Below are positions 3,815-37,606 of a stretch of DNA of 39,113 bases, piece by piece. Each line of letters begins with the position of its first letter. The first letter of the stretch is position 1. Origin of the DNA: Candidatus Uhrbacteria bacterium (GTDB taxonomy: Bacteria > Patescibacteriota > Patescibacteriia > JACQRZ01); contig JACQRZ010000019.1 in assembly GCA_016206235.1 (NCBI GenBank), positions 1 through 39,113 on the forward strand, in the 5' to 3' direction. A program made the position numbers and the translations under genes. The notes below the pieces were generated by a model. The model saw only the letters and a list, made by a program, of their open reading frames with translations. It ran no database searches and was not told the origin of the DNA.

Positions 3815-3830
3815 ATGCAGGGGTAATGAC

Positions 3831-3858
3831 CAATTTCTAATTCCCAATATCCAAATAA
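3831..3858. repeat. Heptamer-periodic array CAATTTC TAATTCC CAATATC CAAATAA (the reverse complement resembles the GGAAATT/AGAAATT family)
   Basis: Read directly, in the convergent spacer between the pilT-like gene and pyrC. Confidence 0.65.
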
Positions 3859-3895
3859 CTCTCAAATTTGAAAAGGTTAAAAGAATTTTGGTATG

Positions 3896-8731: not shown

Positions 8732-10339
8732 TTACATTAAATCTTTGAGGAGGCTTCTACCTGTCATATCGGGCGAAGGTTTGAGATTGATGCGCTCAAG
8801 GAGTGTAGGCGCAACATCTGCCAAAATGCCGATCGGATTGACATTTTTTTTGAGAAATTCTACTTCTGCTTCTTGACGATCGCGGCGCTGCTCTTCATCA
8901 ACAAGGATAAATGGCACGGGACTTGTCGAATGTTCTTTGACTGACCTGTGGGTCATGAGATCTACTTTACTCTCAGCGTTGCCATGGTCGGCAGTAACGG
9001 CGGTAATGCCCCCAACTTTTTTATTTGCTTCCACCACTTTACTCACACACTCATCAGTTGCTTGGAGCGCTTTGATTGTTGCCTCAAGATTTCCGGTATG
9101 TCCAACCATGTCGGGGTTTGCAAAATTCACGAGGCAAAAATCATATTTTTTCTTTGCGATCTCTGCAACGAGTTTTTCTGCCACCTGATACGCGCTCATT
9201 TCAGGTTTCATGTCGTAGGTACGTACTTTCGGCGAGGGTACTAAGATACGATCTTCCCCCTTGTAAATTTCTTCTTGGCCGCCATTGAAAAAGTAGGTAA
9301 CGTGCGCGTATTTTTCTGTTTCTGCGATGCGGAGCTGTTTATATCCCTCGTTGGCTATCAAAGCGCCGAACGGCTCTTTGATATGTTGTGGAGGAAAGGC
9401 GACGGTTGCCTCGAGACCTGCTTCGTATTCAGTCATGGTAACAAAGACGAGATTTGAAGGCCGTTTTTCGCGAGTGAATCCATCGAAGGCATCGAGCACA
9501 AAACTTTGGGCAATTTGACGCGCACGGTCTTCGCGGAAGTTAAAAAAGATGACAGCGTCGTTATCGTTCACTGTCGCGAGTGGAGCATTTTTTCTGTTGG
9601 TAATAATGACAGGCTCAAGCATTTCATCGTCAACTTTTGCTTCATACGATTTTCTAAGCGCTTCGAGTGGATCATGGAATGGCGTACCCTTCCCTAATGT
9701 TAAAAGATCATAGCTTTTCTGTGTTCTGTCCCAGGTATTGTTACGATCCATGGCGTAAAAACGTCCGCATAGTGACGCGATCTGGCCGACACGCAGCTTT
9801 TTCATGAGTTTCTGAAGCTCTTTGAGTTCATTGAGTCCTGCTTGCGGGGCTGAATCGCGTCCATCAGTAATGCAGTGAATAGAGACGTCTTTAAGCTTTT
9901 TTTCTTTACAAAATTGGAGCAGCGCTTTGAGATGATTAATATGGCCATGGACGCCACCGGTGCTCGTAATGCCCAAAAAATGAAGATGAGATTTATTTTT
10001 TACAACATGCTCCGCAGCCTTTCGGAATGCTTCATTTTGAAGAAATGATTTATTCTCGATTGACATATTGATGCGAGGCAAATTTTGATAGACAACAAGA
10101 CCTGCACCAAGATTCAGGTGGCCTACTTCAGAATTTCCAACTTCACCCCATGGCAAGCCAACGGCAATTCCTGATGCATCAAGAGCGCCGTATGGATAGT
10201 GAGCTATGAGATCGTTCATGAATGGGCGCTTTGCCAAGTACATGGGATTGCTTTCCTCGATGGGGCTAATGCCAAAACCATCAAGTACAATCAGGACAAG
10301 TGGCGGACGTGATGAGCGAGAAGGCATACAGTGACTCAT
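8732..10339 (-). CDS. gpmI: 2,3-bisphosphoglycerate-independent phosphoglycerate mutase
   Basis: 535 aa. Motifs are LVLIVLDGFG, NSEVGHLNLGAG, DGRD and ADHGNAE, typical of iPGM. The start is 10339 or the in-frame ATG at 10327. Confidence 0.9.
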   Translation of the reverse strand: MSHCMPSRSSRPPLVLIVLDGFGISPIEESNPMYLAKRPFMNDLIAHYPYGALDASGIAVGLPWGEVGNSEVGHLNLGAGLVVYQNLPRINMSIENKSFLQNEAFRKAAEHVVKNKSHLHFLGITSTGGVHGHINHLKALLQFCKEKKLKDVSIHCITDGRDSAPQAGLNELKELQKLMKKLRVGQIASLCGRFYAMDRNNTWDRTQKSYDLLTLGKGTPFHDPLEALRKSYEAKVDDEMLEPVIITNRKNAPLATVNDNDAVIFFNFREDRARQIAQSFVLDAFDGFTREKRPSNLVFVTMTEYEAGLEATVAFPPQHIKEPFGALIANEGYKQLRIAETEKYAHVTYFFNGGQEEIYKGEDRILVPSPKVRTYDMKPEMSAYQVAEKLVAEIAKKKYDFCLVNFANPDMVGHTGNLEATIKALQATDECVSKVVEANKKVGGITAVTADHGNAESKVDLMTHRSVKEHSTSPVPFILVDEEQRRDRQEAEVEFLKKNVNPIGILADVAPTLLERINLKPSPDMTGRSLLKDLM

Positions 10340-10340
10340 T

Positions 10341-10368
10341 TCTAATTATCAATTTCTAATTTCCAACA
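10341..10368. repeat. Heptamer array TCTAATT ATCAATT TCTAATT TCCAACA (the minus strand reads TTGGAAATTAGAAATTGATAATTAGAA before the gpmI ATG)
   Basis: Read directly. It shares 21 of 22 nt with 22-43 upstream of the pilO-like gene. Confidence 0.8.
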
Positions 10369-10415
10369 TTTATAGAAGAGGTTTGCGACGATCATTAAGA
10401 AATAAATTCTTCCAT

Positions 10416-10684
10416 GGAGTATAAGATACGAGCCAGCATGGCTTGAGAGGCTCAAAACTGAGGCGATTTCACGAAACCGACGACGAAGCTGTATATAACA
10501 TACTGCGAGGAGGAGTGACAAAGAAATCGACCAGTTTTGAACCTCCCGAAGGGCGAGCCTTGTTTGCTTTATTTTCTTCGTTGCTCGTCGCTAGCGATGG
10601 TTTACATCGCGTCGCTCCTCGCGCCACGAATCTCAAGCAAACAGGAGACACGCTCAACACATACTGGCTCGGATCTTATACCCC
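10416..10684. other. Rod-like structured element (candidate ncRNA or MITE-like palindromic element), class unknown
   Basis: Terminal 18-nt inverted repeat at 10419-10436 and 10664-10681 pairs at 17 of 18 positions and extends to 19 of 21. Nested perfect 8-bp helix pairs 10441-10448 with 10631-10638. Further helices pair 10478-10488 with 10576-10590, and there is a branch hairpin at 10594-10610. C[GAAG]G sits near the centre. The region is GC-richer than the other spacers and has no credible ORF. Confidence 0.4.
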
Positions 10685-10736
10685 TAAGGTATCACACAAT
10701 GATTCGCTGAGCAACATCATTCGCAGGTGCTTCGCG

Positions 10737-10765
10737 TTGACAAATGAAGAGAAAAAGACTATATT
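10737..10765 (+). promoter_or_regulatory. Sigma-70-type promoter TTGACA-N17-TATATT for tRNA-Leu
   Basis: Perfect -35 at 10737-10742, 17-nt spacer, -10 at 10760-10765. The tRNA begins 15 nt after the -10. Confidence 0.55.
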
Positions 10766-10779
10766 TGACTGATAAATAA

Positions 10780-10863
10780 GCCGCGGTGTCGAAATTGGTA
10801 AACGATGGCGACTCAAAATCGCCCGGGAGCAATCCCTTGTGGGTTCGAGTCCCACCCGCGGCA
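10780..10863 (+). tRNA. tRNA-Leu (anticodon CAA), no encoded CCA
   Basis: Manual cloverleaf. Acceptor GCCGCGG/CCGCGGC, anticodon loop CUCAAAA, long variable arm CCGGGAGCAATCCCTTG, T arm GTGGG-TTCGAGT-CCCAC, discriminator A. Confidence 0.9.
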
Positions 10864-10870
10864 AATACAT

Positions 10871-11104
10871 ATGCGAAAAGAGTTTTTATTGTTCATGGTT
10901 GGGAGGGGCATCCCGAAGAAGGTTGATAGCATTGCTGTCTTTTCTGACAACGATTCATATGTTCCGTTCGACAATCAAGATGATTTTAAAAATACACTCG
11001 GTTCAGCAATAGTTATTGAACATTCTGCAGGTCATTTTAGTGGTGCCATGGATAGCTGTATCGAGCCACCAATAGCCCTTGAGTCTTTGCTGAAATTATT
11101 GTAA
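10871..11104 (+). pseudogene. Remnant of a YdeN/RBBP9-type alpha/beta serine hydrolase (frameshifted N-terminus fused to the C-terminus; the core is deleted)
   Basis: ATG 10871 reads MRKEF.... The +2 frame at 10879-10923 encodes RVFIVHGWEGHPEEG and then TGA. One extra A in the A4 run at 10876-10879 would restore MRKRVFIVHGWEG. The in-frame tail IAVFSDNDSYVPF...EHSAGHFSG is the family C-terminus. About 100 aa, including the nucleophile elbow, are absent. Confidence 0.55.
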
Positions 11105-12773: not shown

Positions 12774-12847
12774 CGCGGGGTGGAGAAGTCTGGCATCTCG
12801 CTTGGCTCATAACCAAGAGATCGCGGGTTCAAATCCCGCCCCCGCAA
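12774..12847 (+). tRNA. Initiator tRNA-fMet (anticodon CAT), no encoded CCA
   Basis: C1xA72 mismatch (CGCGGGG/CCCCGCA), anticodon loop CUCAUAA, T arm GCGGG-TTCAAAT-CCCGC, close to E. coli tRNA-fMet. The anticodon stem CTTGG/CCAAG has only two of the three canonical G:C pairs. Confidence 0.9.
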
Positions 12848-12850
12848 TAA

Positions 12851-12880
12851 AATAATTCACGCGAAAGCGTGGGTTATTTT
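12851..12880 (+). terminator. Intrinsic terminator after tRNA-fMet
   Basis: A stem of about 12 bp, including G-U pairs, closes a GCGAAAGC tetraloop and is followed by TTTT. Confidence 0.6.
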
Positions 12881-13021
12881 ATTGTTGAGGGAAACAACAG
12901 AATTTATTCTGTTGTGTTGGGATTTGAAGACCGTAGTGATGTTTGGCGAACATTCTGGTGAGCCAAACCACGAGGGGCGGCCTGCGAGCTCGCCGAGGGA
13001 ACGAGGCGAGACTTGTAGGCT

Positions 13022-13040
13022 AATCCCGCCCCCGCAACCA
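13022..13040 (+). repeat. Duplicated 3' end of tRNA-fMet (16-nt direct repeat AATCCCGCCCCCGCAA) followed by CCA
   Basis: 13022-13037 is identical to 12832-12847. This copy continues CCA, whereas the intact gene continues TAA. Confidence 0.75.
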
Positions 13041-13251
13041 AAAGGGACTGTTTCGCACTGGGACGGTCTTTTTTGATTTGTTGACCCAGCACTAACTCTT
13101 AAAAAAGTAATTTTATACGCTCTTAGCCATTACTCGGCAAGAAAGAACGCACAAGTATTATTTCACGTTCTCTGCAGAAAGTAGTGCTGGGTTGACTTTG
13201 ATGAATACTCAGCGTATCCTGATATCTATCATTCCTGCACTACTTAATATT

Positions 13252-36957: not shown

Positions 36958-37115
36958 GATTTTCAAAAAGAGCGCTTCAAAAAATGTCATGGGTATAGCA
37001 TATCAATATTGAGCAGGGCGGAGGCGAGCGTAGTCTCCAAGAACTTATCACCAGCGAACCTTTAACTCTTGAGCAACTGACATCTGAGAAGCTCGAGGAC
37101 GTTTTCAATTTCTAT

Positions 37116-37352
37116 GTGAACGGCGTGCGGAACGGCACGCATGGAGATGATCTTTTGCGATCAATGGCGAATGAGAGAAATTTCGAGTCGATATGCGCGA
37201 CAGCGCTCATGCGTATTTTAACGATTCGCATTGATCAGAACCCCCAGAACACTGCTTCGCGTAAAGAGATGCGTAACCGATTGATCCCGCTTCTGAAAAC
37301 AATTGTCCGCAACCGAGCGCATGCGCGCCGCACTGACGATCCATTAAAATAG
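37116..37352 (+). CDS. Hypothetical ORF, possibly the 3' remnant of a longer gene
   Basis: The frame is open from 36999 but has no ATG, GTG or TTG before GTG 37116. No motif recognised. Confidence 0.25.
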   Translation: MNGVRNGTHGDDLLRSMANERNFESICATALMRILTIRIDQNPQNTASRKEMRNRLIPLLKTIVRNRAHARRTDDPLK

Positions 37353-37377
37353 AACTTCAAGCGGTATAATGGAAAGT

Positions 37378-37548
37378 ATGACTAAAGAACAATTACGACC
37401 TAAAGGTGCAATTGGTATTTACATTGTTCATAACAGTTCTATTTTTCTTTTGTTGAGAAACTCCAATCATGCAGGAGGCGCAACATTATACATGGCTCGC
37501 GCCTTCAGATATAAAGATAAAGAGATTGAGGTTGCTTCCTGGATTTGA
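37378..37548 (+). pseudogene. Possible N-terminal fragment of a Nudix-like gene (56 codons)
   Basis: MTKEQLRPKGAIGIYIVHNSSIFLLLRNSNHAGGA... resembles a Nudix N-terminal beta-strand region but stops before any Nudix box. It falls below the ORF-track length cutoff. Confidence 0.25.
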
Positions 37549-37606
37549 TAAGGTTTTAAAGCGCGTGCTACCGCTGACGCAATAAACATATAAACTGCCA
37601 AAGACT

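Follow-up and report, generated by a model that had tools for sequence, protein, structure and literature searches.

The spacer between gpmI and the tRNA-Leu(CAA) gene in the window (the whole 39 113-nucleotide contig of Candidatus Uhrbacteria bacterium analysed here) is 440 nt long and carries, at 10416-10684, an element of 269 bp (∼ 270 bp) bounded by inverted repeats. The question raised by this locus is whether the element is an RNA gene or an insertion; the original prediction had called it a 'novel ncRNA or MITE'. Neither half of that alternative is proven, but synteny favours the insertion or MITE-like side, the element being absent from the locus in every relative examined. We conclude that the element is a real, lineage-specific, non-coding foldback insertion. 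More tentatively, we regard it as a MITE-like foldback insertion, or as an internally deleted remnant of one. CPR bacteria (Patescibacteria) have compact genomes of small size, and mobile elements or non-coding RNAs have seldom been described from them. Against this background, the maintenance of a 270-bp non-coding insertion in a core promoter region is modestly curious.

Boundaries, authenticity and predicted shape of the element

The left terminal inverted repeat (TIR, 10416-10447, 32 nt, GGGGTATAAGATCCGAGCCAGTATG) is 84% complementary to the right TIR (10653-10684), the two forming the strands of a closing stem. Within the TIR, the core 18-mer GTATAAGATACGAGCCAG (10419-10436) has an inverted match at 10664-10681 with 17 of 18 positions complementary, as given in the original prediction; the repeat extends beyond it. 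Only 0.02 matches to this 18-mer are expected by chance, and two were reached in none of 100 shuffles. The element has a GC content of 0.50, versus 0.26 and 0.37 in its two immediate flanks and 0.21-0.34 in the ordinary short spacers of the window, which bears out the earlier remark that the gap is GC-richer than other spacers. The same remark called the gap the largest non-coding stretch flanking core genes. It is indeed the largest clearly non-coding spacer, but a 649-nt stretch with short ORFs only, at 36958-37606, is longer (GC 0.44, ORFs of ≤ 78 aa, downstream of a HEPN-domain gene). The sequences that flank the element, TTCCAT and TAAGGT, have no direct repeat in common and thus give no target-site duplication; a 2-bp TA duplication would be hidden in the palindromic tip of the TIR. 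Inside the element, nested and alternative inverted repeats (I1-I14) are found.

Two Logan contigs reproduce the ends of the element. L081 (SRR12113385_1775840) matches 10340-10439 at 100% identity and includes the left junction with 24 nt of the element, and L100 matches from 10599 onward into tRNA-Leu, again at 100% identity, and includes the right junction with 86 nt. Since both junctions recur in separately assembled contigs, the element is not an assembly chimera. That it is some other assembly or library artefact, such as a chimeric hairpin or adapter-derived sequence, is hardly credible. The suspicion arises because L081 breaks off within the element and continues as a mosaic-end adapter, because the adapter and the TIR have the 8-mer GTATAAGA in common, and because 10440-10598 is covered by neither contig. 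However, both junctions, together with the 24 nt and 86 nt noted above, are exact copies, the likeness between TIR and adapter (compared by eye) stops at the 8-mer and a closing CAG, and the arms of the element are not copied from neighbouring sequence. Adapter contamination accounts for positions 1-19 of L081, where the Nextera/Tn5 mosaic end AGATGTGTATAAGAGACAG is joined to window position 10439. Kinship of the TIR with the Tn5/Nextera mosaic end was likewise rejected: the shared 8-mer and CAG lie, in our own reading, in the orientation opposite to that of the Tn5 end, and we count them as coincidence.

Both strands of the element are predicted to fold far more stably than shuffled sequence. 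Predicted energies are -106 kcal/mol (z -6.2) for the plus strand and -121.4 kcal/mol (z -9.1) for the minus strand; in either case none of 200 shuffles matched the value. A sliding fold scan of the whole window (280-nt segments) ranks the element as the top minus-strand outlier. Although the element had been described as rod-like, the predicted ensemble is a three-way junction, consisting of the closing stem and two hairpin arms of ∼ 105 nt each. The closing stem, in which the pair probability is 1.0 for either strand, comprises 24 bp (12+12) when the minus strand folds and 8+8+3 bp when the plus strand folds. Arm 1 (10445-10547) is built on a basal helix of 16+7 bp on the minus strand or 4+9+7 bp on the plus strand, as given by the helix table and inverted repeat I4; its interior is purine-rich and weakly paired, with a small apical hairpin at about 10487-10505. 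Arm 2 (10551-10655) has a basal helix between 10551-10569 and 10635-10655 (inverted repeat I2), in which one probed pair has a probability of 0.90-0.98, and a second helix of 5 bp between 10577-10581 and 10626-10630; the core helix of this arm measures 9-11 bp and its interior is pyrimidine-rich. Alternative or tertiary pairings between the arms are possible, as the purine-rich interior of the first complements the pyrimidine-rich interior of the second (I3, I10, I14).

Several local features named in the original prediction can be placed in this fold. The side hairpin at 10594-10610 is present as the apical hairpin of arm 2 (GCGATG-GTTTA-CATCGC, with a 5-nt loop) and forms with a probability of 0.91 (plus strand) or 1.0 (minus strand). 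The proposed 8-bp helix between 10441-10448 and 10631-10638 is a perfect complement (I13), but its pair 10444/10635 has a probability near 0 and forcing the helix costs 6-15 kcal/mol. Likewise, 10478-10488 (cgacgacgaag) can be paired with 10576-10590 (cttcgttgctcgtcg) around a bulge of 4 nt, yet the pair 10480/10588 has a probability near 0. The C-GAAG-G sequence does occur at 10547-10552, where CGAAGG marks the junction between the two arms instead of an apical loop.

Coding capacity, known RNA families and relatives

The element lacks coding capacity. The overlapping ORFs pointed out previously exist at their coordinates and have no Pfam match. The 109-aa ORF of the element has no database match, and a six-frame pseudo-protein of the element retrieved nothing at E ≤ 10 among 5.8 billion proteins. 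Its 63-aa ORF gave a single match in a search of 1.84 billion representative proteins, P0121, which is a translated tandem 174-nt DNA repeat. P0121 and the element have in common only an 18/23-nt motif, GATT.CTT.GTC...CCTCCTCG (E 0.86 at the DNA level); as this DNA-level match is not significant, we treat P0121 as a chance match and not as a homologue. P0121 itself lies at 1531-2351 of L096 (JGI Ga0114934_10012583), where tandem 174-nt repeats of GTCATTGCGA...GCGAAGCAATCTC and CTTCGTCGTGCCTCCTCGTAATGACG motifs have been called a 294-aa 'protein' within an ABC-transporter operon; it is a repeat element mis-annotated as a gene.

Comparison with known RNAs was equally unproductive. An Rfam cmscan with all 4227 families gave no match at the gathering score, and permissive filters at E ≤ 10 gave noise only (for example mir-1323 at 21 bits, far below threshold); ARAGORN found no tmRNA in the element. 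The original prediction had seen no SRP, RNase P or tmRNA signature in the sequence, and the Rfam cmscan, which it had proposed and which also took in 6S and OLE, agrees. The idea that the element is a divergent member of a catalogued RNA (SRP, 6S, RNase P, tmRNA, a retron msr-msd, OLE, a HEARO-like RNA or a ribozyme-bearing viroid-like copy) draws on its size, its closing stem and a loose likeness of CC-GAAG-GG...GAGCC to SRP helix 8 only. As in a retron msr-msd ncRNA, a closing stem (the TIRs, in the place of a1/a2) surrounds hairpins, one of them long and near-perfect, and the total of about 150-270 nt is similar. In contrast to a retron, the window has no reverse transcriptase, the neighbours being gpmI, tRNA-Leu, a hydrolase fragment and a formyltransferase gene, and Rfam reports no msr match. 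Moreover, a housekeeping RNA would be expected to be conserved in relatives, whereas a covariance model of the element found nothing else in 824 kb (see below). We consider the catalogued-RNA reading effectively refuted, and its residual probability is slight.

No second copy and no homologue of the element was found. It is single-copy within the 39-kb contig. A pattern scan of JGI metagenomes for the TIR gave five matches, all of them bare 18-19-mers without extension and hence attributable to chance. IMG/VR viral contigs, phages and plasmids contained neither a homologue nor a matching TIR, and a fuzzy TIR search of 787 kb of related loci gave no match. A 34-nt match in Methylocella (E=0.07) was dismissed as noise. 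We also built a single-sequence covariance model (R1, 97 base pairs) that covers the element from end to end; run over 824 kb, comprising the window and related loci, it recovered the element itself only. Across 80 GTDB loci and 15 loci of closer relatives, blastn, nhmmer, the fuzzy TIR search and R1 all failed to detect a homologue. No transposase, integrase or reverse transcriptase is encoded in the window, and no IS with matching ends was found in the related loci, viral contigs, phages or plasmids. A search of the literature on MITEs or structured RNAs in CPR bacteria returned nothing relevant.

These results bear on both halves of the original alternative. It had named missing homologues and missing covariation as signs against an ncRNA, and as far as public data allow no homologue, and hence no covariation, was seen. 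It had also named dispersed copies and target-site duplications as the hallmarks of a MITE, and neither was found, the search for copies having covered the contig, JGI metagenomes, the viral and plasmid sets and the related loci.

A replication origin was considered as a further explanation for the spacer and rejected, as GC skew is positive across the whole window and DnaA-like boxes are fewer than expected by chance, with none in the spacer.

The tRNA-Leu/gpmI locus and its promoters

gpmI (2,3-bisphosphoglycerate-independent phosphoglycerate mutase, 8732-10339) lies on the minus strand, with the element 76 nt upstream of its ATG, and tRNA-Leu(CAA) (10780-10863) lies on the plus strand as the conserved neighbour that anchors the synteny comparison. 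By its gpmI the contig falls among Candidatus Uhrbacteria-like Patescibacteria, the nearest gpmI product among 5.8 billion proteins being 80% identical. In four relatives (P0002, P0004, P0005 and P0010, gpmI 72-80% identical) a divergent tRNA-Leu(CAA) is followed by 81-125 nt, a SIMPL gene and gpmI. Two others (P0003 and P0006, 72-75%) have SIMPL directly upstream of gpmI on contigs that end before any tRNA. More distantly, L001 (68%) and L002 (60%) have tRNA-Leu and gpmI separated by 101 and 116 nt respectively. The element is thus absent from the tRNA-Leu/gpmI locus in eight related lineages, whose gpmI is at most 80% identical and which are too distant for an exact empty-site alignment. Its absence from the orthologous locus of all relatives examined identifies it as a lineage-specific insertion. 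The lineage of the window lacks SIMPL and has ∼ 270 extra bases in the slot that SIMPL holds in the closest relatives (gpmI 70-80%). A decayed SIMPL gene was looked for in the element by tblastn, by a protein profile against the six-frame translation and by nhmmer; all three were negative, and this candidate was rejected.

The coincidence of the element with the SIMPL slot suggests another possible origin, namely a palindromic scar left by deletion and repair of SIMPL (through fold-back priming or template switching), which would be functionless and would never have transposed. The element fills exactly the slot of the closest relatives, it is single-copy in the contig with neither target duplication nor partner transposase, and the nested and alternative inverted repeats I1-I14 would fit successive inverted duplications. 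On the other hand, nothing in the element resembles SIMPL, the flanking genes or the rest of the window, so that the donor of the duplicated DNA is not seen, and a GC content of 0.50 differs from that of the local spacer DNA. We regard a scar of this kind as rather improbable.

The promoter region lies on the tRNA side of the element. The tRNA-Leu promoter (10737-10765, plus strand) is outside the element and consists of TTGACA, a 17-nt spacing and TATATT (11 of 12 matches). A weak sigma-70-like promoter on the minus strand (10716-10743; TTGTCA, 16 nt, AATGAT) points through the element to gpmI; as a consensus match, it is a putative promoter only. The -35 boxes of the two promoters overlap back-to-back (TTGTCAA here, TTGGTCAA in relatives). 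The same back-to-back layout is found in L001 (2303-2403) and L099 (1593-1685), with TTGGTCAA and a strong gpmI-side promoter of the form TTGGTC...TATACT; the gpmI-side -10 box is thus poor in the window (AATGAT) versus good (TATACT) in these two relatives. If the weak minus-strand promoter is active, the element lies within the gpmI leader. No convincing intrinsic terminator follows the element on either strand.

Two further sequence features were noted near the promoters. A 9-nt direct repeat, ATGATTCGC / ATCATTCGC, with 17-nt spacing lies at 10699-10724, between the element and the divergent -35 boxes, and might be a protein-binding site. Runs of AATTTCT/AATTTCC-type heptamers (GGAAATT/AGAAATT on the other strand) occur directly upstream of gene starts, including that of gpmI, at 10338-10369, 3-37 and 3824-3866.

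The position of the weak gpmI-side promoter and the strand bias of the fold raise the possibility that the gpmI-sense (minus) strand encodes an orphan structured RNA, either a long gpmI 5' leader gained with the loss of SIMPL or an sRNA confined to this lineage that forms a three-way junction. In favour of such an RNA, the fold is more extreme on the minus strand (z -9.1 versus -6.2), where the element is the window's top outlier. The minus strand also has eight G-U pairs, the plus strand three, and all four transition-type mismatches within the two longest helices read as G-U on the minus strand. In addition, a promoter-like site stands upstream at the conserved divergent-promoter position. 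Finally, a long GC-rich intergenic region amid AT-rich spacers is a classic predictor of ncRNAs, on which discovery pipelines draw (PMC6429828, PMC8723152).

Against it, the excess of G-U pairs falls short of significance (P about 0.11, a binomial estimate), and we rejected a strand assignment based on the 8 to 3 asymmetry of G-U and C-A pairs. The missing homologues, and with them covariation, the missing Rfam match and the missing terminator count against an RNA, as do helices that are unusually long and perfect and a -10 box that is poor in comparison with the TATACT of relatives. Nor was a pairing seen that could serve as an expression platform: riboswitch-like sequestration of the gpmI start was considered and discarded, since the element folds alone and does not pair with the start region. 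We therefore judge an orphan RNA unlikely, if still worth serious consideration; should it prove to be transcribed, and to be conserved in closer relatives, the element would count as a new structured RNA with a link to the expression of a glycolytic gene.

The Breaker-laboratory ncRNAs from GC-rich intergenic regions (raiA, OLE, HEARO) offer a comparison for such an RNA. Like them, the element is long, intergenic, non-coding, richer in GC than its surroundings and extreme in its predicted structure. Unlike the element, which has neither a detectable relative nor an Rfam match, those classes rest on conservation and covariation across many genomes, and the helices of the element are much longer and more perfect.

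A possible MITE-like insertion and its neighbourhood

A MITE-like foldback insertion, or an internally deleted remnant of one, is the explanation that we favour, with the reserve already expressed. The element has TIRs and no coding capacity, its 269 bp fall within the MITE size range (under about 500 bp), its composition is foreign to its flanks, and it is absent from the orthologous site in relatives. A lack of conservation anywhere searched is what a young selfish insertion predicts. Helices as long and nearly perfect as these (24 bp and 16+7 bp) are what inverted duplications typically give, and evolved structured RNAs do not usually have them. The neighbourhood is also in flux, with a 174-nt insert at a tRNA-Met gene 2.2 kb away and a serine-hydrolase fragment beside tRNA-Leu.

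Some features do not sit easily with a MITE. One copy is visible in the 39-kb contig, there are no flanking direct repeats, and the window holds no partner transposase. The interior is far more structured than a MITE that needs only its TIRs would require. Lastly, the advantage of 15 kcal/mol for the minus strand and its G-U count (8 versus 3) hint at selection at the RNA level, without reaching significance.

We suggest the following sequence of events. The insertion would have landed, or been left, in the region of divergent promoters that separates tRNA-Leu from gpmI; the host lineage would also have lost the SIMPL gene usual at that place. A transposase supplied in trans would once have recognized the TIRs, and the element may now be passive DNA. 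If the weak gpmI-side promoter fires, the element would be co-transcribed in the gpmI leader, and its near-perfect duplexes of 24 bp and 16+7 bp could then be natural RNase III substrates, by analogy with Correia-type MITEs. The duplex transcripts of Correia-type MITEs have been described as substrates of RNase III.

The element resembles the known bacterial MITEs (Correia/NEMIS of Neisseria, ERIC, RUP and the cyanobacterial Nezha) in several ways. These are non-coding, 100-400 bp long and bounded by TIRs; they occupy intergenic or promoter sites near housekeeping genes, are absent at the orthologous site of relatives, and form long duplexes if co-transcribed. What defines these families is the presence of many dispersed copies together with a target-site duplication (TA in the case of Correia). 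By contrast, the element described here has one visible copy, no demonstrable duplication and no known parent IS, and its interior forms two separate long hairpins where a single foldback or an unstructured core would be usual. CIME-like remnants (cis-mobilizable or degenerate integrative elements), which are flanked by att repeats and associated with tRNA genes, are also small, non-autonomous insertions adjacent to a tRNA. The element differs from them in lying on the 5' (promoter) side of tRNA-Leu, in having inverted and not direct terminal repeats, and in duplicating no part of the tRNA. Were further copies of the element to exist, they would define a MITE family in Patescibacteria and point to a transposase that is so far undescribed. 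At present the element is an orphan, chiefly of value as a dated case of local genome flux near tRNA genes, alongside the loss of SIMPL, the probable hydrolase pseudogene and the tRNA-Met mini-insert.

The tRNA-Met gene (12774-12847, with a C1xA72 mismatch) is followed directly by the 174-nt insert (12848-13021). The 3' end of the tRNA (AATCCCGCCCCCGCAA) reappears after the insert at 13022-13037, and only this distal copy keeps an encoded CCA and the terminator. The relatives L087 and L002 have CCA immediately after tRNA-Met, and L087 also retains the terminator. The insert region folds with z -8.95 (12848-13047), the strongest plus-strand structural outlier of the window being 12848-13075, and the insert has no Rfam match. 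Such an att-like duplication bears the mark of site-specific integration at the 3' end of a tRNA gene, although the insert is tiny and integrase-less; it may be a CIME-like remnant.

More far-reaching interpretations can be framed, and we consider these distinctly unlikely. Either the element would be a functional, lineage-restricted three-way-junction RNA of ∼ 270 nt on the gpmI strand that has replaced SIMPL in the leader of the tRNA-Leu/gpmI operon, or it would belong with the tRNA-Met insert to an undescribed class of very small, highly structured mobile insertions that home to tRNA neighbourhoods in streamlined CPR genomes.

On the other side of tRNA-Leu, fragments of a serine-hydrolase gene (PF06821) lie at 10865-11104, before the formyltransferase gene. 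The C-terminal piece aligns with positions 111-155 of the 172-position Pfam profile (E 3e-4, slightly short of the family cut-off), and an N-terminal piece in another frame, VHGWEGHPEEG, which Pfam does not match, was spotted by eye. In L002 the interval where these fragments sit measures only about 40 nt. The fragments are probably a pseudogene.
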